IMG/VR virus record: IMGVR_UViG_3300042874_000086
Span: 25,673-89,672 of that record
Source: a virus
Strand: one strand, 5' to 3'
DNA: 64,000 nucleotides
The notes beneath the pieces were generated by a model, which was not told the DNA's origin, did not search any database, and was given only the letters and a program-made list of their open reading frames with translations. Each line of letters begins with the position of its first letter. Position 1 is the first letter of the stretch. Below, in pieces: positions 8,350 through 58,276 of this stretch. The position numbers and the translations under genes are program-made.

Positions 8350-9813
8350 ATGTATACTAAAATTGAAAAAGATGTTTATTACGGAGTTGAGGGGGTAACC
8401 CCTACTATAATTGATTGGTTAGCTACTCAATTTACATCCGCTGGTTGGGTTGTAGATAAAGTTGCTACCGGAATTACGCGATATGATAATGGGCAAGGGT
8501 CTATCTACCCCTTTCGTACAATTAGGATTGGGAGAATACCCTTAATAGGTACAGGCACTTATAGTAATACCTTATACTCCGGTACACATATAAGTAATGG
8601 AGCGTTGGGAGTATTTGAACATTATGGGTGGAAGAGTACAGCAGTAGGGTTCCGGTACTCTTGTACAAATTATGACTATACCAATTTTACTTTTCCTGGA
8701 TATAGCTACCTCACTACCTCGTTTGATATGTTACCCACCTACCCATACAGGCTAGCGATATCCAAATTTCGAAAAAATTTACAAGGAAATATGGGTATAT
8801 TTTGGCAAGCCTCACTAACTGCGGAGCTAGTTAGTATGCGGGTAGGGGGGTTAGAGCTTAATTCTAGTCAGGACGACTCTGGTGTATCAATTACAATTAA
8901 CTCTGACCACAATACTCGTAATATTACATTTAATGATGTAAACACCAGTAAGAAATTACTAGTATATGATACCTATACAGACAACACCAGTTCAAATGTT
9001 TCTGGGTGGTTGTTTGGGGCAACCTCCTTCACGTTGGGTACTCCGATAGCCTTACCTCCAATGAGCACAGAACTTTATGTGCATAGTATTGCTACAAACG
9101 GTGAAAGTTTATATTATTCATTCTACCATGACTGGACGAATGGGTATCTTTATATGTACACAAACAGGGGGTTTGATACAGCATTAGCAGTTAATATACA
9201 GCCTGGTACAGTATCTGCGGCGGACAACTCTGTGTATGACTACCACCGTATAGATTATCTGTTTCAGCACTTTGCTTATACCCCAGTAGACCTATACTTT
9301 TCCGGGGACCAAAACTATTTCTTTTTTAATGTATTTAGTAACTGGACTTCGAGGTATGCAGCAACTAATGTTAACGAGGCTGCGTTCAATAGAAATGAAT
9401 TTCTTTATGGTGGCTCTTTAGATAAAGCGGTGCCTTTCACTGGAGGACAAATATCGCTGGGGTCTCAATATTCCTCCTCACCATTTTACTTATATTATGA
9501 CGGGAATTATTATGGTTCCTCCATTACTACTTCAGTAACTACTAAACAGGGGTATAGTGATATGGTAACGCCTGTTAATTTTACCACCACAAATATTAAT
9601 CTATTCTCAGGTAATGTGTCATTTACCCCATATGTGGCGGGGGTTAACCTAACCCTTAATAACAACGGGGAGTACAAACCACTAGGTTTTGTTAGAAACT
9701 TATATAAATTTTATAAAGCTACACCCCTACAAAATATGACAATAAGACAGGGAACCAAGAAGTTTGCCACGTTCTTTAAGGATACAAATAATAGATATGC
9801 AGTAGAGTACTAA
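8350..9813 (+). CDS. Virion structural protein (tail region)
   Basis: 487 aa, Thr/Tyr/Gly-rich beta-type composition, inside the tail operon. Confidence 0.55.
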   Translation: MYTKIEKDVYYGVEGVTPTIIDWLATQFTSAGWVVDKVATGITRYDNGQGSIYPFRTIRIGRIPLIGTGTYSNTLYSGTHISNGALGVFEHYGWKSTAVGFRYSCTNYDYTNFTFPGYSYLTTSFDMLPTYPYRLAISKFRKNLQGNMGIFWQASLTAELVSMRVGGLELNSSQDDSGVSITINSDHNTRNITFNDVNTSKKLLVYDTYTDNTSSNVSGWLFGATSFTLGTPIALPPMSTELYVHSIATNGESLYYSFYHDWTNGYLYMYTNRGFDTALAVNIQPGTVSAADNSVYDYHRIDYLFQHFAYTPVDLYFSGDQNYFFFNVFSNWTSRYAATNVNEAAFNRNEFLYGGSLDKAVPFTGGQISLGSQYSSSPFYLYYDGNYYGSSITTSVTTKQGYSDMVTPVNFTTTNINLFSGNVSFTPYVAGVNLTLNNNGEYKPLGFVRNLYKFYKATPLQNMTIRQGTKKFATFFKDTNNRYAVEY

Positions 9814-12140: not shown

Positions 12141-12875
12141 GTGGATTTATACAAAGTAAGCTTATTTAACAATACCTACTATTATTCCTCTGGGGTAGAT
12201 GTTACATTTTTAGGGACTCCTTACGTAGGTAAACCCATAAACCGAACCGAAATAACAGTAGAATTACAAGATTCGGATATAAGAATAACCGCCCCCTTAA
12301 ACTTAGAGCCTTTTTCAGTCTATATTACAGCTTCTCCCTCTTCAGATATGAGCCTAACCTTATATGATTATGATTCAGGGTTTGAAATGTTTTCGGGTAT
12401 TTTAATATCACTCACTTATAAAATTGACACTGGGGTTGTTGACTTAAAATTTCAGAAGAAGGAATCGTTTTTTGATAGTGAAGTTCCATATAGAACCTAT
12501 GGTACTTTATGTTCTTTTGATTTATACTCAGCGGAGTGTGGGGTCCAAAAAGCAGATAACCAAATAGTAACAGCCACCTTCACGCTTGCTGAGGATAGAC
12601 GCTCTGTTACAGTACCTGGCATATCTGGTATACTAGATAATACATACCGATACGGGGTTGTTGGTACCGATACCGGGGAAACTTCCTTCATAATCAGTCA
12701 AGTAGGAACTACGGTTGTATTTGATACACCTTTATTCATAATTCCATCTTCCATATATTTAATAAAAGGGTGTGATAAATCATTTAGTGGTTGTGGGAGT
12801 AATTTTAATAATTCTATTAGGTATGGGGGATTCCCTGTTATACCCGCAAAAAATCCAGTTACGGAGTCTATCTAA
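12141..12875 (+). CDS. Tail-tip/baseplate hub protein (DUF2163/BR0599-like)
   Basis: C.FDLYSAECGV and GCDKSFSGCGSNFNNSIRYGGFPVIPAKNP Cys motifs. Confidence 0.85.
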   Translation: MDLYKVSLFNNTYYYSSGVDVTFLGTPYVGKPINRTEITVELQDSDIRITAPLNLEPFSVYITASPSSDMSLTLYDYDSGFEMFSGILISLTYKIDTGVVDLKFQKKESFFDSEVPYRTYGTLCSFDLYSAECGVQKADNQIVTATFTLAEDRRSVTVPGISGILDNTYRYGVVGTDTGETSFIISQVGTTVVFDTPLFIIPSSIYLIKGCDKSFSGCGSNFNNSIRYGGFPVIPAKNPVTESI

Positions 12876-25253: not shown

Positions 25254-25716
25254 CCAAACCTTCTGCGTATTTAGCTAAGGCATATGCATCGGCCAAATCA
25301 TCTTTCTTTTTATAGCCTTTAAACTCTTCTAAAACATCTTTAGGGAGGGTATTTATCATATCCTCTTTAGACGCTTTTCCATTTCCTGTAAAGAACTTTT
25401 TGTTTGCTGAAGGTGGTACTAAAGTTACCACATAACCTTTATGAAGCAACCCATAGTAAACTCCACCAACTAGCATACTAAGGTCAACAACTTTACCGTT
25501 AGCCATAAAAGCTGGAGCTTCAATACATACTACAACTTCAGTAGGCTTGAAGTTTGCTATAAATTTCATACAATCCCTAACTACGTAGGAGCACCTTGTA
25601 CGAATATCTGGAACCGTTGGGGATATTACTAAGTGTTTGTACAAACCACCTTTAGCGCCTAATACCACTATTGCAGTATTGGTACTAGAAGTATCTATTC
25701 CTATAAATAAACTCAA
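25240..25716 (-). CDS. RuvC-like Holliday junction resolvase
   Basis: FIGIDTSSTNTA, CIEAP, KKFFTGNGKASKEDM, DDLADAYA. Confidence 0.88.
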   Translation of the reverse strand: MSLFIGIDTSSTNTAIVVLGAKGGLYKHLVISPTVPDIRTRCSYVVRDCMKFIANFKPTEVVVCIEAPAFMANGKVVDLSMLVGGVYYGLLHKGYVVTLVPPSANKKFFTGNGKASKEDMINTLPKDVLEEFKGYKKKDDLADAYALAKYAEGLVNAN

Positions 25717-39656: not shown

Positions 39657-40676
39657 CCTGGTGTTCAGGTAGGCTCGTTAGTTCCTACCCCGCAAAATTA
39701 CTTGCGGCTACATATTTCTATATAGAGCAGACTATATCTTCACCCCTTTCGGGGGCTATACGTTTCGGGGTACTTACCCCTACTTCCTTTCGGAATAGTC
39801 GTTGAGGTTAAGACTTAACCCAGAAATACCCATAAGCAGATTTTTGTCTACCACTCAGTACATTAGATATGGGACCAGCTGATTTTACTTTTAAGTATTG
39901 TACCGCCTCGGTAATATTATTAAAAATTTTAATAATATTACCATTTGTCTTATCTATCATATTTAACGTGATATCTTGTCTCTTGCTCATACCTGCGTTT
40001 TTGGCTCTTACTAATTTTTGAGAAATTAAAGAATTCTCGTAATCCTTAATAATACCTAAACGCTCTGCCGCTTCTCTAAGATGGTAACTAAGTTGTGTTA
40101 ACCCCTGATTAGTTGAATTACTAATTGAAGTTAAAGTTTCTCCAAGTAAAAATCTGTTTACTAGAATATCTTCATACTCACTTAACTGATATTTTCTTCT
40201 ATAGGGTTGTAGCCCACTGCTATATGCGTGAGCCATGTTTTCACTAAAGGTAGCCCACTCCAAATTACTAATAAAGTTATTTGTTTTGTCCCCGTCTATA
40301 TGATTAACAGTTTTCTTCCCCTCAGGGTTTGGTATAAAAGCTTCTGCCACTATTCTATGTATATACAGATTCTTGTTACTCCCATGTTCAGATATAGATA
40401 CACAAGGGTACCCAATCTTACTAACCCAAATACTCTTAGATTTGCCTGTTTCTGTGTTAATAACTTCCCCATCAACATTTATAGTGTGATGGGTACATCC
40501 ATTAATTAATCTTACCATATTAAAACTCCTTACTTTTGTTATAATCGTAACTAGTTTTAACTTAGGCAAAAGTTAAAGTCTTAACCTGCTGATTGCCTAC
40601 AACATCACTTGTTTAGGTGTTCCAGCATATGTATAGTTTTCTTCTACGTATTACTACGCAGTGACGCCTAAATTTA
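39657..40676 (-). ncRNA. Group I intron 2 in polA (1020 nt)
   Basis: 5' exon ACGU pairs with GCGU (U.G at splice site). P AUAUGCUGGAA, Q AAUCAGCAGG, R UCAACGACUA, S AAGAUAUAGUCU; terminal G. Splicing restores KSITF-GLNYG. Confidence 0.9.
39808..40518 (-). CDS. Intron-encoded HNH homing endonuclease (HNH + NUMOD1)
   Basis: IHRIVAEAFIPNPEGKKTVNHIDGDKTNN..SNLEW...EN; C-terminal ISNVLSGRQKSAYGYFW. AAGGAG RBS before ATG 40518. Confidence 0.92.
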   Translation of the reverse strand: MVRLINGCTHHTINVDGEVINTETGKSKSIWVSKIGYPCVSISEHGSNKNLYIHRIVAEAFIPNPEGKKTVNHIDGDKTNNFISNLEWATFSENMAHAYSSGLQPYRRKYQLSEYEDILVNRFLLGETLTSISNSTNQGLTQLSYHLREAAERLGIIKDYENSLISQKLVRAKNAGMSKRQDITLNMIDKTNGNIIKIFNNITEAVQYLKVKSAGPISNVLSGRQKSAYGYFWVKS

Positions 40677-40815
40677 ACGTAATTGATTTACCTTTTTGTC
40701 TAAGGTCTGGAGCTTCTTTCTTAATTCTGTTAACTGAGTTTGCATTAGTAACATCTAGGAGTAACCCACGTTCTTCTAATTCACCTTTAAAATACGCACA
40801 GGCATTAAGGCTATG
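40677..40815 (-). CDS. polA: Family A DNA polymerase, exon 2 (46 codons + 1 nt)
   Basis: HSLNACAYF...LRQKGKSIT, including the start of motif B (R..K). Confidence 0.88.
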
Positions 40816-41801
40816 CAATTTGTTATGATGTTCGTTAAACATCTCCCCTATCCCTAAGGGTATCGGACTATATCTTCACCTGGTCTAGGTGGTTGGCGTT
40901 TCGACTACACTTGTAGCCTACTCTACTCACTTCCTAGTGTATTAAATCCACTAGTGTTTTCGATAGTCTCTACACTCTCTAAAAGTGTTGGTAATATATC
41001 ATTAGATAGTACCTCAGTGTTACCACCCCTTGCTAGGCTAGTGTACTTGGGTACGATTAACATAAAATATTGTTTTAGTAACAAACTCTCCACGTAGTAG
41101 GCTTCTTGCTCTGTGTTATAAGATTTACTAAATAGTATAATTGGTTTTTCTACCTCACCGTTAAACCTTTGCTTAATTTTGGTAGTAACGCCCAACTTAT
41201 ATATTCCTAAACCCACAAAGAAAATATAATATAGTGTTGCTGGTCTATTAATATTAAACTTTCTTAATTTAATACTGCGAAGGTTTTGAGCACATGTAGG
41301 GCAATTCTGTTTTTGATGTAAATGACTTTTAGGTTCCATAAAAAAGGAACCATGCTCTTTACACACAATCTCAACCTTACTTGTCATTTTAATAAAAATG
41401 ACCTTAGAGTAATCATACCTATCTCCATGTACTCTCTTAAACTCTTCTATAATAGTAATACTACGTTTTTCTTTGGCTACTTGTGTGGAAGCATCCCTAC
41501 CACATCTAACACATCTAGTTATTCTATTTGTTTTAACTGCAGATTCCCTAGTAGTCACCGAGTTACCACAATCGCATTTATATAAAGATAACCATACTTT
41601 TTCGCCGTTTTTATTATTACGATATTCTACATTTTTTTCTATTAATACTAACATACTACTTTCAGATAGCTCGGGATTGGGTGTTCTACCGTTCCCCGAA
41701 TTAGCCAACTTTATTTTCTTCGTATCCCTACGAAGGACAGCCATATCTACTTAATAATCGTAGACTATACCTTTTAATGTATTCACCAAAGGTATAAGTT
41801 A
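40816..41801 (-). ncRNA. Group I intron 1 in polA (986 nt)
   Basis: Exon GACGGU pairs with IGS GCUGUC; adjacent AUG pairs with 3' exon CAU (P10). P AAUUCGGGGAA, Q AAUCCCGAGC, R GUAGAGACUA, S AAGAUAUAGUCC; terminal G. Splicing restores DGIDG-HSLNA. Confidence 0.9.
40923..41744 (-). CDS. Intron-encoded endonuclease (Zn fingers + GIY-YIG-like domain)
   Basis: YKCDCGN; HGDRYDYSKV...KVEIVCKEHGSF...CPTC; LYYI..YKLGVT..QRF; GGNTEV. Confidence 0.8.
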   Translation of the reverse strand: MAVLRRDTKKIKLANSGNGRTPNPELSESSMLVLIEKNVEYRNNKNGEKVWLSLYKCDCGNSVTTRESAVKTNRITRCVRCGRDASTQVAKEKRSITIIEEFKRVHGDRYDYSKVIFIKMTSKVEIVCKEHGSFFMEPKSHLHQKQNCPTCAQNLRSIKLRKFNINRPATLYYIFFVGLGIYKLGVTTKIKQRFNGEVEKPIILFSKSYNTEQEAYYVESLLLKQYFMLIVPKYTSLARGGNTEVLSNDILPTLLESVETIENTSGFNTLGSE

Positions 41802-43655
41802 ACCGTCAATTCCATCAGTAAATACAGCTAGTTTCATTGGGTCATTTGCCTCCACTGCAATTAGTCTATCTTCCAAAGCCGCGTAGTCCACTGCTCCAAT
41901 TACAAAACCATCATCGGGTATTAGTAATTTTTTAATAAGCTCTCCGTACTTACTATTAGAGGGCATATTTTGGAAATTCAAACCACCTGATGAGCTTAAT
42001 CGTCCTGATACAGTACCAGTTTGATTAAAGTTAGCAAACACTTTCCAGTGACCTGGCTTAACTTCAACACTACTCTCTTTAAACACTTTCAAGTAAGTTG
42101 AGTTTACTTTATCAGCGTCCATAATATCCCGCAGTAAATTAAGAAGCTCCTCTTGTTCTTTGGTAATATCAAGTTCTAACCACTCAGCAATAACGTCTTT
42201 ATCCGTTGAAGGTTTCTTAGAGGTCTTTGAAATCTTAATAACAGGTAAGTTCATCAACTCAAAGAATAAGAATTGTTTTTGGTTTGGGCTTCCTGGATTA
42301 AATGGCTCAAGGAACTCATCTTTAACATCTGCCCATTTCTTTTTATTTTTTAACCCATCATTATACTTTTTGAATCTACGCTTCGCTAAGAAATCTTCTG
42401 CTTGTCTAATGATAGGGTGGTCACGGAATGTTACTAGCTTGTCTGCAACCAGTTCATTAAGCTCCTCAATAGCACCAGACACTTTATCTTTCTTAATACG
42501 TAGACCATTCATCTTCATTTTTAGAAGTGTAACACCAATATCACGTATCTCTTCATAAACAGGTATAAGAGATTTATTCTCATCTTTACTTACCTCTTCT
42601 CGGTACTGCTTCCATATACGACAAGTAGCAATAACATCATAGTTATTATAGGTGGCTACTTTATATAAATCAGCACCGAATAGGTTCTTTTGGTCTATAT
42701 CAGAATCATATTCACCCATAAAGGAAAATACTAGTTCTTTAAGACCCAACGAAGGGCGTTCTGTACTATTGAATAGAACGTAAACAAGCAACATAGAATC
42801 TTCAAGGTTAAATAAATTAATCAAGGGCTCTTGTCTAATACCGAAGTCACTACCTCTCATAATCTCATGGGTAATAAAAGCTTGGTCAAACCCAATCCAG
42901 TTGTGTCCTACAAGTTTCCCCTTATACTGACTAAAGAACGCTTTCAAGGTCTTTGCTAGTTTTCGATAAGTATCTTCTGAGTGATACTTAGGGTGTAAAG
43001 CTACACAGAAGGCTTCTTTCTCATTACGAGCAAATGATATTGTAAGCATCTTATCAGCATACCAACGTAAACCAGTGGTCTCGATGTCCACATATAACTC
43101 TGGTTCATCAATCCATGCCTTAAGGTGGTTGTAGACCTCAGTAGGGTCTTTTAAGATTAGGTTCATATCTAAATCAAGGGTCTCAACTGGGTCAGTATAG
43201 TCTCCTAAAAGTAGATTTTTAATAACTGATAAGCCTCTATTGAGTTCCTTAAAACGTTCAGGGAACATATTTAGAATTACTGGATTAAGGATTGGTACAA
43301 TTTGGTAATTGACCATATCTTTATGACCCTCAACTACCCTTCCAATATTCAACATCATTTTCTTATCACCAGTTAGATTTTGGTAATAGTCAGCGTTACC
43401 TACAGCAATAATATTAATGCTATACATTTCACAATATTCTTTTAAGGCTACTAACTCAGTATCGAAATCAGCCTTTTTTAGTTTACCTTTTTCAGGAACG
43501 AATCCCCCAGCAAAGGCAAAGTCCTTTATATCCATTCCCAACGGGACTACAATTTTTTGTAACAAGAAATTAGCAGACCCTTTATTACAAACATTTTGTG
43601 GTAGTAACACCATTACTTTAGGTTTGGCTTGAGGGGTTAATGTAAAAACTTCCAT
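41802..43655 (-). CDS. polA: Family A DNA polymerase, exon 1 (UDG-like N-domain, 3'-5' exonuclease, start of polymerase); spliced product about 858 aa
   Basis: VDIETTGL, GHNWIGFD, YNNYD, FNPGSPNQ, TVSGRLSS..NFQNMP, DYAALEDR (motif A). Confidence 0.93.
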
Positions 43656-49697: not shown

Positions 49698-49774
49698 TGG
49701 TACCATTGGTGGGGTACAATCCCACAACCTCAGATTTAGGAAATCTGTGCTCTATTCAATTGAGCTACAACGGT
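49698..49774 (-). tRNA. tRNA-Arg (anticodon CCT) with encoded CCA
   Basis: Acceptor ACCGTTG/CAATGGT-A-CCA; D arm GCTC..GAGC; anticodon arm CAGAT-TTCCTAA-ATCTG; T arm GTGGG-ATTGTAC-CCCAC. Confidence 0.88.
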
Positions 49775-49777
49775 GAA

Positions 49778-50390
49778 TTCCGTGTGTGCAAGCAGGGACA
49801 CGGATAATTGAGCTTGTATTTTACTGTAGCTCCATTTATTACTAAACAGTACTTCCGAATTCTTTATGCCAAACTTTCAAGTATTAAGCTGTGCTCCCAT
49901 AAATTCAAGGAAGATTGATTAATGGTGATTAGCCAACCATAAGGGTTGTGGTTCGATTCCAAACTATCGACTTAATACTCTATCAACCTACCAATCGACT
50001 TCATAGGCTGAATAGGGGATTAAAAGCTCTTTGTGGTGTAGGCACGAATTTGGGCCGTGGGTTATATGTACAGCATATCTTCCACTCACTACACCATCAA
50101 AAGCTAGGTATGCACCACTACCCCTGCTTCCCTCGGGGCACCAAGTCCGACAACTTGATTAACTATTAAGGAATTAGCTTGATTCCTACGGGGCTACCCT
50201 AACGCACACCTTTGTATCGCTGAAGTGGAAGCGTAAGCACTATTTCGTCTGCCTAGAAACGTCTATGATTATCCTCTTAGACCAGAGTAGACTGCTTGTA
50301 GTGGGAGTCAACACTGTTGCTTGTCGAAGGCAACGTAAAAGTTCCATATAGAACCTTTGCAATACCTTCTGACACCTTTATAGGGTGTCA
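49778..50390 (-). ncRNA. Candidate large structured non-coding RNA(s) upstream of tRNA-Arg
   Basis: No sense ORF of 60 aa or more; richer in GC than its flanks; many hairpins; directly downstream of a sigma70 promoter. Confidence 0.55.
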
Positions 50391-50392
50391 AA

Positions 50393-50421
50393 ATTATACA
50401 CAATATTTTAAAGAAAGTCAA
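50393..50421 (-). promoter_or_regulatory. sigma70 promoter for the ncRNA/tRNA transcript
   Basis: TTGACT-N17-TATAAT. Confidence 0.8.
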
Positions 50422-50666
50422 GACTCTTTTAAATCTTTTAATACTTTTTTTAAGATAGTATTTGGTACATTCATAAAGATTAAACCCACATTAGTTTCCC
50501 TAAATATAGGTATTCCCCTGTAAGTAACATAACCACATTTCATATAACACCCGGCACTTCTAGTTGATAAAAAAGAGTTAACAACTGGGTATTTTTTCTT
50601 AAAAACATGGGATATACTTACCCGTAATAATAAGTATTCCATGTAATAGAGTATATACCTAATCAT
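50418..50666 (-). CDS. Hypothetical protein
   Basis: ATGA overlap with the stop of the SLT frame. Confidence 0.45.
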   Translation of the reverse strand: MIRYILYYMEYLLLRVSISHVFKKKYPVVNSFLSTRSAGCYMKCGYVTYRGIPIFRETNVGLIFMNVPNTILKKVLKDLKES

Positions 50667-51222
50667 AGTACACTCCGTGCAAACTTTTTACCTTCGGAAC
50701 AATAACCTTTATACCTATGTACAGCCTCAAACATTTCACCCTCAGATATTTTTAAATAGTGGTTTAATATATAAGCCATAGAGTAAATATTACCCTTGTC
50801 AGTGTGGGGGTTAAAGGGAAGAGCCTTAGAATCCCAAGCTCTAGTATTAATCCCACATAACCCAACTACGTAGGGGAGTGCGTGTTTTCTATGAATGAAA
50901 GAAGACTCGGAATTTGTAAGTTTTCCGAGTAATTCTACTTTCCCACATATTCACACTCCAATAAGCTGCTAGCCTTTATTAATTCTACAGCCTGTTCTTT
51001 TGTAGCACCAGCTTTTATTAAATCATACTCTTGTAGTTGGTAAGCTCTGTAACCCTCTCTATAAAACTCTAATTCACTTTTAATTTTAGATTGTTTATCG
51101 TTATAGGCTAAAATAGTCTCATTAATAATGACAACATTAAATACCAAATATAAACAAAATAAAGCCTCCGCCAAAATAATAATTAATAGAAACTTTGTCC
51201 AATGCTGTTCTAATTTATTCAT
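50663..51222 (-). CDS. Membrane-anchored lytic transglycosylase (SLT-like), read through a -1 frameshift at 50938-50944
   Basis: Frame 0 gives a TM + coiled-coil ORF (51222-50935). The -1 frame gives VELLGKLTNSESSF...GLCGIN...NPHTDKGNIYSMAYILNHY...AVHRYKG, ending at TGA 50663-50665. Confidence 0.7.
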
Positions 51223-55152: not shown

Positions 55153-56091
55153 TTAAGCGTACTGCCAAGTACACCCACCTGCTTTTGTACGGATACCTTT
55201 ACAAACCTTTGTAATGTTTGTGGCAAAGATACCAGTTTTTGTTTCAGCTTCTGCGGCGGAGGCATAAACTACTTTTACATTTTTACCCTTCTCATTGGTA
55301 ACCAACATAACTGCTTTACCCTCTTTAGGGATTTCAACTTTTGATTGTTTATAAACTTTAATATCACGAAGTACATCAAAGTTACTTGCTTTATCAGTGA
55401 CATCCTCAATTATTTCATAATCACATACCCGCATTTTAGTATCATTGTAGTCAGCCGGAATTGATACAACATCTCGTGGGTTTACCTTACAAGCCATGAT
55501 ACGATTCCCTGAACATGACCCGAAGTGTTTTAGGTATGAATAACTGCAAACATGAAGCCCATCAGAACAAGTTACTTGGGAGTTCTCATTAACCATATTA
55601 CGAGGCATACTTGGTTTCGCACCTACTGAATTATCAATAGTACCTGTGTAAATATCTTTGTAGTTTGGGCGTACTTTTTTATAAACCACAAAATGCCCGT
55701 CTTCTGTAATGGGGATTCCACCTTTTTCCAAAAACTGGTAGAGTTCCTTAACAGCTCTGTACGAAGGGTTCTCCATCAGATTGCTCAAGAAATTTATAAG
55801 AGGGTTAATATTAAACCCAGATTCCATTAAATCAAATAACTTGTCTACCACATAGTTATGTAGCTCCTTGCCTTTGTAGAGCACAACACCATCCTTGACC
55901 TCAACAGTACCATTAGAATATACTTCAATAGCTTTAGAAATATTGATGAGATTTAGAAGTTCTTCTTCGTCTGCCCCACGTTTGATTGCTTCAAGCACCT
56001 GTGTGTAATTTACATGTGTTGTATCAACAACTTTTGGAATTCCATCCAAAAGCACCGTAATTGAATTTTGTGAGATAATATAGTGTACCAT
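55153..56091 (-). CDS. rIIB-like protein with C-terminal NUMOD1-like HTH
   Basis: FLSNLMENPS...ELYQFL...PITEDGHFVVYKKV...TCSDGLHV...KVNPRDVVSIPADY..KMRVC; tail ITKVCKGIRTKAGGCTW. Confidence 0.85.
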   Translation of the reverse strand: MVHYIISQNSITVLLDGIPKVVDTTHVNYTQVLEAIKRGADEEELLNLINISKAIEVYSNGTVEVKDGVVLYKGKELHNYVVDKLFDLMESGFNINPLINFLSNLMENPSYRAVKELYQFLEKGGIPITEDGHFVVYKKVRPNYKDIYTGTIDNSVGAKPSMPRNMVNENSQVTCSDGLHVCSYSYLKHFGSCSGNRIMACKVNPRDVVSIPADYNDTKMRVCDYEIIEDVTDKASNFDVLRDIKVYKQSKVEIPKEGKAVMLVTNEKGKNVKVVYASAAEAETKTGIFATNITKVCKGIRTKAGGCTWQYA

Positions 56092-56092
56092 C

Positions 56093-58276
56093 TTAGACTC
56101 CTTGTTTTGTTTTAGTATTATAACAAGAATCAATCATTTTGGCAATTGATTCCACCTGAGATTTATGGGTAGAATTAACACAACTAAGCATATCGTACTT
56201 CTTCATAACCTCCTCAATTTTAGGGTCTTTAAATTCTTTCTTAACCACCTTTAAAAATGGAAGATTTTTTTCGATATTACCTTGGTCTAGGTATGGGGTT
56301 CTTGTGAGTTGCTCACCAGATTCCAACAAACTTTTCACAGCATTAATGTAGTCCTTCGGTAAGTTCATATTTACCAAATCAACCAATCTTGAGCGGTATT
56401 CATGTTGATACTTTTTAAGTAAAGCGTCCCCCACCATGGTTACAGTGCCGATTTCCCGTTTTAGAAAATCTTCATAATGTTCTCCAAACTTTGTAAAGGA
56501 TTTCTGTGTCTTACTGACAATAATAATAATCAAATCTTTATCATACTTTACTTGGTCAAGTACGGTTTTAATTGTGTTTAAAATTCTTGATGTTGAAAAT
56601 TGTTCATAACCATCAAAGTTTCGGTTAGCCAAATTATAGTCACCAGTACCATATTTAGGGATGTAAATTATTTTAGTTTTTGTATCCCCATTGACTTGTA
56701 TATTATCATTGAGGGTAAAAACACCAGCCGTACTATTTGATTTATCTACAGCAAGTACAGTTTTAACTGTGTTTAAAATTCTCGATGTTGAAAATTGTTT
56801 ATAACCACCACAGTTTTGGTATTTAGTTTTTGTATCCCCGTTGACTTGTATATTATCATTGAGGGTAAAAACACCCGTTTTATGGTAATAAGTAGCCCCA
56901 GTGATAGGTGTATATACCCCAGTTGTCCCATTTGATTTATCTATCGCAAGTCCATGCTTTTTTGCTAAGGTACTAGCAAGTTCAATAGTTACCCCACAAT
57001 TTTCGGCAAACTCTTGTATAAACTTAATTTGTTCCTCTTTTTCTATCTTATTTTTACCAGCAATCTCGGGCTGGATAGCCACAATCTTACCTAAATCTCG
57101 TTCTTTGTATAATCCAAGAACTTTATTGGTTAGTTGTTGGTTATCTGCAAAAATAATTATACCAGATAATAAACTTGTAGCGGCGTATGTATCTTTTCGG
57201 AGTCCTCTCCTCCAACTTGTATACTTTAATTGGTATCCATCAAGACCAATTTTAGGGTATGACCCTTGGTACTTAATACCTATCGGGTGGTTCCCACTGT
57301 TTGAAAAAATTGAACGAACACTATATGGCATTTTACCGATTGTATTAACAATTTGTATCAAGTTACCTTTTATATTTTTAGTCATTTCTAGGTACTGGGC
57401 AGTTAACTCCTTAGTAATTTCAGTTTCGAACTTTTTAAGGTTGGTTAAAGTTTCTTTGGTATATGAAAGTCCTTCTCGGCTACCTGACATTTGAACCTCA
57501 CCAGTTTCTGCCGAAACTACTAATCCTTGTATTTCAAGATTAGGTAAGGAATACGTAGAACAATCAATAGGGTATGCAACATTTGCCATAACTACAACAG
57601 GATTAGTCGATTCTTCAAAAATCTTCCAATTCTTGCCTTGGAAGATTGGTTTTGTAAAATCAGGGTACTCCAAATCTTGGTTACACTTAGGTTTTACTCT
57701 AAAGTGGCTATAAACGTTTACTGCTGAACGGTAAAAGTCATTAATATCTTGAACTTGAATAGGCACTGAAACTTCAACACCATTTGGTTCGTCTGTTTTA
57801 AACTCACCCAACTTTGCAATAGAAGGAACACCCGCGTCACTGAATACTGAATAGATTGACTTAGTACCGTATTGGAATGAAGTCAAAGTAAACGCACCAC
57901 CTTGAGTATATGCAAAAGGAGACTTTGAACCTACCCCTAAAGCTCCATTAAAGGCATTTGAGCCACGTTTGGAAGAACTCCCCATAGTTGAGTAAAGCTC
58001 GAATACAGTTTCCTCACTCATACCCACTCCAAAATCTCGAATTGAAAAGAAAGGTTCTAACCTAGTTGGTAAGTGTACCTCGAATGGGATATGTTCCATT
58101 CTAGCTTCAATTTGAGCATCCAAAGCATTTGTTGAAAGTTCCCGAACAACTGCCAATGGTTTGTTAGAATATAAACGGCTTGATAGTAAGTCAAACATTA
58201 CACTATTGGCTTCAATCTTACAAGCAACACTTCCTACATTACTTTCAGCTCTTACAACTGTATTTTCAATAATCAT
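56093..58276 (-). CDS. rIIA-like protein (GHKL ATPase N-terminus)
   Basis: LYSNKPLAVVRELSTNALDA, IRDFGVGMS, SSKR..N...G.LGVGSKSPFAYT; adjacent to rIIB. Confidence 0.88.
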   Translation of the reverse strand: MIIENTVVRAESNVGSVACKIEANSVMFDLLSSRLYSNKPLAVVRELSTNALDAQIEARMEHIPFEVHLPTRLEPFFSIRDFGVGMSEETVFELYSTMGSSSKRGSNAFNGALGVGSKSPFAYTQGGAFTLTSFQYGTKSIYSVFSDAGVPSIAKLGEFKTDEPNGVEVSVPIQVQDINDFYRSAVNVYSHFRVKPKCNQDLEYPDFTKPIFQGKNWKIFEESTNPVVVMANVAYPIDCSTYSLPNLEIQGLVVSAETGEVQMSGSREGLSYTKETLTNLKKFETEITKELTAQYLEMTKNIKGNLIQIVNTIGKMPYSVRSIFSNSGNHPIGIKYQGSYPKIGLDGYQLKYTSWRRGLRKDTYAATSLLSGIIIFADNQQLTNKVLGLYKERDLGKIVAIQPEIAGKNKIEKEEQIKFIQEFAENCGVTIELASTLAKKHGLAIDKSNGTTGVYTPITGATYYHKTGVFTLNDNIQVNGDTKTKYQNCGGYKQFSTSRILNTVKTVLAVDKSNSTAGVFTLNDNIQVNGDTKTKIIYIPKYGTGDYNLANRNFDGYEQFSTSRILNTIKTVLDQVKYDKDLIIIIVSKTQKSFTKFGEHYEDFLKREIGTVTMVGDALLKKYQHEYRSRLVDLVNMNLPKDYINAVKSLLESGEQLTRTPYLDQGNIEKNLPFLKVVKKEFKDPKIEEVMKKYDMLSCVNSTHKSQVESIAKMIDSCYNTKTKQGV

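Follow-up and report, generated by a model that had tools for sequence, protein, structure and literature searches.

This analysis concerns a short gene on the minus strand of a 64,000-nucleotide stretch of viral DNA, positions 25,673 to 89,672 of the IMG/VR record IMGVR_UViG_3300042874_000086 (the whole of this stretch is called the window in what follows). Comparison of the gene with its relatives makes it very probable that a conserved programmed -1 frameshift allows this one gene to specify two proteins, namely a short membrane anchor and a 186-residue membrane-anchored enzyme with an SLT-like (transglycosylase) domain. Annotation pipelines miss the enzyme entirely, calling instead a "hypothetical" protein of 95-103 residues and a start-less fragment. 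The parts of the gene and the start of the gene that follows it are listed here, with predicted roles where these can be suggested.

51222..50935, minus strand: ORF1, the open reading frame (ORF) of the 0 frame, 95 residues, ending GTG GGA AAG TAG; predicted to encode an N-terminal transmembrane (TM) helix (residues ~15-33), followed by a helical/coiled region and by the SLT-like domain's first helix.
50959-50956, minus strand: Shine-Dalgarno (SD)-like GGAG, whose end lies 11 nt 5' of the heptamer; it may act as an upstream stimulator.
50953-50951, minus strand: TGA closing the -1 frame, two codons before the heptamer.
50944-50938, minus strand: slippery heptamer G_GGA_AAG, in the correct X_XXY_YYZ phase for tandem -1 slippage with ORF1.
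50937-50935, minus strand: 0-frame stop codon TAG, directly after the heptamer.
50905..50930, minus strand: hairpin starting 7 nt past the heptamer, made up of ACTCGGAA (50930-50923), a 10-nt loop and TTCCGAGT (50912-50905).
50663..50938, minus strand: ORF of the -1 frame, 91 codons from GTA at 50938, plus TGA at 50665-50663; predicted remainder of the SLT-like domain.
50418..50666, minus strand: next gene, 82 residues, without a family match; its ATG (50666-50664) overlaps the TGA of the -1 ORF, as ATGA.

This anatomy agrees, coordinate by coordinate, with that described in a first-pass annotation of the same DNA, which had pointed out the slippery site, the GGAG at 11 nt, the 8-bp hairpin at 7 nt, the TGA that blocks the -1 frame, the 91 open codons and the terminal ATGA. 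The Kyte-Doolittle hydropathy of ORF1 reaches its 19-residue maximum (2.59) at residues 15-33, while the -1 frame, which is open for 93 codons if these are counted from the start of the heptamer, contains the motifs NSESSF, GLCGIN and RYKGY; the hairpin comprises 8 bp, and its 3' arm contains the codon GAG (50908-50906) of the putative catalytic Glu. An ATG at 50948-50946 on the same strand, with the GGAG 7 nt upstream of it, overlaps the slip site and was considered as a possible start, but it opens only a 19-codon ORF in the +1 frame and is not found in the relatives, and is taken to be incidental.

As a control for chance, all X_XXY_YYZ heptamers (Y = A or T) across the whole 89.7-kb record were collected (n = 990) and inspected for three properties: 60 or more open codons on the upstream side, a 0-frame stop no further than 10 codons away, and a -1 frame that is likewise open for 60 codons or more. 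These were found together at three of the 990, including the site described here. One of the others, at window position 12848, was set aside as an ordinary gene overlap, the downstream gene there having an ATG of its own. The last is A_AAA_AAG at record position 8951 (minus strand), outside the window, with 83 open codons upstream, a 0-frame stop two codons on and a -1 frame open for 329 codons; it could be either an ordinary overlap or a second frameshift site.

Relatives for which DNA is available allow the arrangement to be followed beyond the window. The loci read at this level were the window record itself, L002 (a 1.4-kb metagenome contig), L003 and L004 (IMG/VR contigs of 74 and 89 kb) and L005 (75 kb); L006 proved to be the same contig as L003. 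The gene is split in the window, L002, L003 and L004, the products of the four -1 ORFs being 36-56% identical pairwise, and in all four the break falls at the same protein position. Where the window has G_GGA_AAG, the other three have C_CCA_AAG in phase; the 0-frame TAG, which follows the heptamer directly in the window, lies one codon past it in each of them. A stop in the -1 frame precedes the heptamer by 8, 2 and 0 codons in L002, L003 and L004 respectively (0-8 codons across all four loci), and the frame then stays open for 94-95 codons in these three (93-95 across all four); since the stop in L004 abuts the heptamer, it is only there that a shift would be possible in that locus. L005, in contrast, has a single-frame gene of 178 residues, which reads TCT TAT AAG GTC at the equivalent spot and has neither the heptamer nor a comparable hairpin. 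The first-pass annotation had proposed asking whether homologues keep the frame break and the heptamer, and the answer is accordingly divided: three diverged relatives keep both, but L005 does not. As a side observation, the gene just upstream of the split gene in L003 (1942-2202, plus strand) encodes a small protein with a TM segment and helical character that ends GLTLQQAEAKLAQ and overlaps the start of ORF1; this ending is reminiscent of the LGAS..QA motif of the transglycosylase family, and the protein has no PHROG match.

The evidence that the two halves belong together comes from homologues in which they are encoded in one frame. A word-based search returned a single homologue, P0002 (60% identity, 92 residues), and a search for longer homologues of P0001 returned no fused form; fused forms were found later by profile search, when a three-sequence profile run against 1.84 billion representative sequences gave 102 matches at E <= 1e-3. 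By hand count, 68 of these are at least 170 residues long with the domain at the C-terminus, 25 have at most 110 residues (these begin no more than 15 residues from the first position of the domain) and 9 are intermediate. In the long homologues, which are single-frame proteins, the N-terminal TM helix is followed by a helical stalk and this by the motif LGAS..QA..IKAA..Y.LDPK, after which comes LGALI.SESSF...H....V.GL.GIN...YKG. Against a hidden Markov model (HMM) built from 11 full-length single-frame homologues (189 positions), the four ORF1s gave matches ending at position 89-95, that of the window covering positions 16-89, and the four -1 ORFs gave matches beginning at position 95 or 96, that of the window covering positions 95-182 with 121 bits. 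Simulated transframe proteins each gave one continuous match, with 145 bits for the window (residues 14-186) and 211 bits for L003. On these matches, a -1 slip at the heptamer would restore the family protein with neither loss nor gain at the junction.

Other searches gave little. Pfam and PHROGs gave no SLT or other informative match for the two halves from the window, neither ORF1 nor the -1 frame matching SLT even at E <= 1; neither blastn nor tblastn, run against 50,697 phage records, gave a match for the locus or for P0001; and scans of viral contigs with P0001, P0002 and P0013 found no match. A degenerate motif scan of genome contigs gave 12 matches, none scoring above 11.4 bits against the family HMM, where about 13 would be expected by our own estimate; all are put down to chance, so that this pattern revealed no prophage copies.

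At the protein level the break can be followed more widely. A profile of the N-terminal half (ORF1 profile A5) matched 14 proteins, five of which are single-frame proteins of 185-195 residues, while the other nine are anchor-only ORFs of 95-165 residues, made up of the window's own and eight others (97-165 residues) that include the ORF1s of L003 and L004. All eight of the others end 1-4 residues past a DPK, the endings being DPKP, DPKY (twice), DPKH (twice), DPKL, DPKHLGL and DPKPLEP. Back-translated by hand, the residues after DPK (Y, H, P, L, HLGL and PLEP) are what the 0 frame is predicted to give on reading codons that in the -1 frame specify Val/Ala-Leu-Gly/Ala. Five variants of the 103-residue form of the L003 ORF1 are known, spread over 19 contigs that come from NCBI, JGI, Logan and ENA. 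Two members of that cluster, P0119 and P0121, carry the source label "signal transduction histidine kinase", which looks like a mis-annotation of a fragment consisting of a TM helix and a coiled coil.

Turning to the signal itself, the heptamers are of a kind with a good record: in the parts of the two sources covered, X_XXA_AAG heptamers are given as the most proficient in E. coli, with three V_VVA_AAG sequences as the best -1 motifs (PMC4066793, PMC5009743), and the second of these describes G_GGA_AAG as shift-prone and mentions g-t frameshifting (PMC5009743, part covered). Downstream, the hairpins begin 7, 5, 5 and 4 nt past the heptamer in the window, L002, L003 and L004, although their arm sequences differ among the split loci and the 3' arm of L003 lies at a different place. 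The fold in the window has a minimum free energy of -14.2 kcal/mol (z -3.28, with 2 of 200 shuffled sequences equally good), and over the four loci in the same order the z-scores are -3.28, -2.55, -2.79 and -0.94, three of them beating the shuffles. Ranked among all 45-nt windows of its own gene, the fold stands 17th of 515, 38th of 380, first of 539 and 31st of 569, while the equivalent segment of the single-frame L005 stands 95th of 489. Upstream, an SD-like element is present as GGAG at 11 nt in the window and as GAGG at 13 nt in L002 and L004. An Rfam search returned no frameshift element, its only matches being to tRNA and, below threshold, to CRISPR-DR.

As to the nature of the enzyme, the first-pass annotation had read the hidden domain as an SLT-like muralytic one. 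Family members lend this some support: of 24 that were aligned, 13 match Pfam SLT (PF01464) at E <= 0.1, and among 10 full-length homologues compared with it four pass the gathering score of 21.3 bits (P0005, P0008, P0009 and P0025), five have a match that falls below it and one has no match. The family profile (A6, 31 members) matches 9b45, a phage tape-measure SLT domain (E 3.7e-14), as well as EtgA (5e-5) and MltC (1.4e-4), and also soluble lytic transglycosylases and goose-type lysozymes; a profile made from C-terminal pieces only (A2) found no match among PDB sequences. The window's own -1 frame, on the other hand, shows no Pfam SLT match at E <= 1. Every one of the 24 aligned members has the Glu of NSESSF, which aligns with the ES of the 9b45 SLT domain and of EtgA. 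Likeness to the SLT/GH23 family (PF01464) thus extends across the catalytic E-S helix and the motifs that follow it, while the differences are that this family has GL(C/A/S)GIN where classical SLTs have GLMQ, and that it carries an N-terminal TM anchor and helical stalk. A further departure is that classical SLTs have AYNxG where this family has (R/A)YKG.

On these profile comparisons the family is SLT-like, and the slip site is placed inside the predicted domain, between its first helix and its catalytic helix; in the full-length homologues the SLT match starts some 13 residues before the junction. It follows from such a position that only the transframe protein would contain the whole domain. 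This modifies the earlier picture of an anchor joined to a hidden enzyme domain: the joining stands, in that the two parts are colinear with the single-frame homologues, but the slip falls within the domain and not ahead of a complete one.

The events envisaged are as follows. Translation would start at the ATG at 51222 and take in the TM helix, the helical stalk and the SLT-like domain's first helix. On reaching G_GGA_AAG, ribosomes would be impeded in translocation by the hairpin 7 nt downstream, an effect to which the upstream GGAG may add, and the P-site Gly tRNA and A-site Lys tRNA could then re-pair on GGG AAA, reading being resumed in the -1 frame with GTA GAA. The -1 frame would supply what is left of the domain, including the catalytic helix (SESSF), to give a type-II protein of 186 residues with its enzyme outside the inner membrane; those ribosomes that do not slip would stop at the adjacent TAG and release the 95-residue anchor-only protein. 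By likeness to other V_VVA_AAG sites, the long form is probably the minority product. We infer an early-expressed periplasmic transglycosylase, anchored in the inner membrane, whose amount would be low and tied to that of an excess of anchor-only chains. The most likely purpose would be that a dangerous wall-cutting enzyme is kept at a low dose, in fixed proportion to its anchor, in early infection; candidate roles would be local remodelling of the wall, an accessory function in lysis, or exclusion.

All this said, a number of points weigh against a programmed frameshift, and several of them feed what is the serious rival among the alternatives, namely a tolerated or decaying frameshift. On that explanation a one-base loss at a slippery Pro-Lys or Gly-Lys spot would have persisted without being selected and without yielding any useful second product, slipping being incidental or not occurring at all. 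Single-frame homologues are indeed common, forming the class of 68 among the 102 representatives, and the split and single-frame forms interleave on a tree that is poorly resolved (only 4 of its 42 inner branches are well supported) and on which the four verified split rows need four changes. From this interleaving, and from the existence of relatives that are in frame, it follows that the anchor-only product is dispensable in the relatives and that the split state is labile. Then there is P0117, a natural variant of the L003 ORF1 present on three contigs, which ends DAKY and not DPKY; in it the heptamer would lack its P-site half, A_AAG alone remaining, which makes it a natural test of how much of the slippery motif is needed.

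Other points concern the signal, the enzyme and the data. The hairpin of L004 is no better than its shuffles. The SD-like element is absent from L003 and overlaps the conserved Ala-Glu-Val codons; being present in three of the four loci, and coinciding with those codons, it can be put forward only as a possible stimulator. The proficiency of these heptamers is known from E. coli, which need not resemble the phage host in its set of Lys tRNAs. The window's own two halves lie below Pfam SLT thresholds, kinship with SLT resting on family members and the family profile. Finally, the one check on the base calls there comes from the Logan contig of a single run, X1, which is probably the source sample, so that this bridge is not an independent one.

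Against a tolerated mutation stand the retention of the same break point among proteins that are 36-56% identical, and also in eight anchor-only clusters besides the window's own; the fact that the -1 ORFs have stayed open for 93-95 codons in AT-rich DNA with the invariant catalytic Glu and other family residues kept; and the occurrence of a hairpin 4-7 nt downstream of the heptamer in every split locus, when there is none in the single-frame L005. With these in view we regard a tolerated mutation as unlikely, and a programmed frameshift as much the better account of the split loci.

A second alternative is that the -1 ORF is translated alone, from a non-canonical or re-initiation start, so as to give a soluble protein of 91-95 residues. 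The window does offer a GGAG-N5-ATA (ATA at 50950-50948), and low-level AUA initiation occurs in E. coli, according to the part of PMC4066793 covered; moreover, gene callers chose a TTG-type start for P0002 (from JGI) and P0122 (from Logan), and they did so at the same position on different contigs, so that the short form is not an artefact of a contig edge. Conventional start codons are nonetheless hard to find where they would be needed: the -1 ORF of L002 has no ATG, GTG or TTG in its 95 codons, and the first of these comes 55 codons past the heptamer in the window, at codon 61 in L004 and at codon 14 in L003, which is already beyond the catalytic Glu. There is also little room ahead of the heptamer, with the stop of L004 abutting it and only TTT AGA separating the two in L003. 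A protein made in this way would, besides, miss the first SLT helix and the membrane anchor that the single-frame homologues possess, and independent translation of the -1 ORF seems to us very unlikely.

Less credible still is a sequencing or assembly indel in a gene that is truly single-frame: although the record is a metagenome assembly, and although the Logan contigs of runs X2 and X3 (gap 50924-50946) and X7 (gap 50919-50987) do not bridge the site (such gaps in themselves proving nothing), four separately assembled loci from different samples show the same frame relation, the 103-residue L003 ORF1 recurs on its 19 contigs from four sources, the runs of identical bases at the site are only G3 and A3, and the Logan contig from X1 spans the site with 0 differences at a depth of 14.7, even if X1 is the probable source run. 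Transcriptional slippage was rejected, no run of identical bases around the heptamer being longer than A3 and G3 or C3, and so was reading of the TAG as a residue, the homology lying in the -1 frame and not in the 0 frame.

The surroundings of the gene bear on when it might be expressed. The record, of 89.7 kb, is rated 48% complete by CheckV; metagenomes from caves, biofilms and soil contain near-identical DNA. In the window the gene has as neighbours rIIA and rIIB, a helicase, a DNA polymerase next to which HNH endonuclease ORFs lie, and also a ClpP-like protease, while L003 and L004 have a thymidylate synthase, a DNA ligase and an HNH gene nearby; the helicase near the locus is at most 25% identical to any cultured phage. 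By predicted gene content this is a replication/early region, and the earlier statement that the gene lies in such a region and away from the usual tail-chaperone locus holds good, with rIIA, rIIB, helicase and DNA polymerase as neighbours and no chaperone match in either PHROGs or Pfam.

Some further observations on these neighbours may be recorded. Between the 82-residue gene, which ends at 50418, and a tRNA-Arg(CCT) at 49698-49774 there lie some 640 nt (49775-50417, minus strand) with no sizeable sense ORF, for which Rfam returned nothing at E <= 1. In the rIIB-like ORF (55153-56133, minus strand, 326 residues), residues 272-326 match an HNH endonuclease PHROG (E 1.5e-5). The region 39808-43655 (minus strand) contains a 618-residue DNA polymerase ORF, which matches only part of the polymerase profiles, and directly downstream of it two HNH-type ORFs, 39808-40569 and 40923-41744.

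The signal is compact, at about 65 nt, and lends itself to direct testing in a reporter. The family has switched repeatedly between single-frame and frameshifted states, and such natural alleles provide in addition a ready system for asking what use is a fixed ratio of short to long product. Going further, and much more tentatively, the use of frameshifting to set the dose of membrane-anchored wall-cutting enzymes may be a general and overlooked phage strategy, in which the ratio of anchor-only to anchor-plus-enzyme chains would be fixed by the slip, the stalks would mediate hetero-oligomers having few catalytic heads, and a lethal periplasmic enzyme would thereby be kept in check until needed; this we put forward as a possibility that could well prove wrong.

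Most of the conserved recoding on record in phages concerns tail chaperones and capsid genes, with a few others besides. Among the papers found by searching for frameshifting together with (lytic) transglycosylase, none is, to judge by title and abstract, about a frameshifted transglycosylase gene, and the word "transglycosylase" is absent from the covered part of the frameshift review PMC5009743. A related case concerns a phage wall-degrading enzyme, the authors of PRFect listing "lysins" among the genes "known to contain a frameshift" in the part of their paper covered, where Shearman 1994 is cited (PMC10885494). Shearman et al. are said to have described, in 1994, a lactococcal phage lysin specified by a pair of overlapping genes.

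Among well-characterised systems, the closest in its slippery sequence is the G/GT tail chaperone of lambda, in which a short 0-frame product is made in excess over a longer transframe product with the same N-terminus, and in which the frameshift is conserved as the sequence diverges. The heptamer there, G_GGA_AAG, is identical to that in the window. The differences are that the product here would be an SLT-like enzyme encoded among replication/early genes, neither ORF1 nor the -1 ORF matching any tail-chaperone PHROG, and that the slip here lies inside a catalytic domain. In the arrangement of the signal the resemblance is rather to dnaX, with its A_AAA_AAG, its upstream SD-like element and its downstream stem-loop. 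In both, an X_XXA_AAG heptamer is preceded, about 10-13 nt upstream, by an SD-like element and followed after a few nt by a hairpin, although here the SD-like element is found in only three of the four split loci. A further contrast is that the shifted product of dnaX is the truncated one, whereas here it would be the complete one. The dnaX shift site is confirmed in the part of PMC5009743 covered. As regards the logic of the products, the OrfA-OrfAB arrangement of IS3/IS911 insertion sequences comes nearest, in that the functional enzyme exists only as a transframe fusion and the 0-frame product is a short N-terminal protein; IS911 constructs also have a heptamer followed by a stem-loop (PMC4066793, part covered). 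The difference is that the protein here is not a transposase, and no insertion-sequence features were seen. The mechanism proposed for the window gene would thus be a textbook one, applied to a new class of gene, in that a membrane-anchored transglycosylase of the early region would have a conserved -1 frameshift within its catalytic domain.

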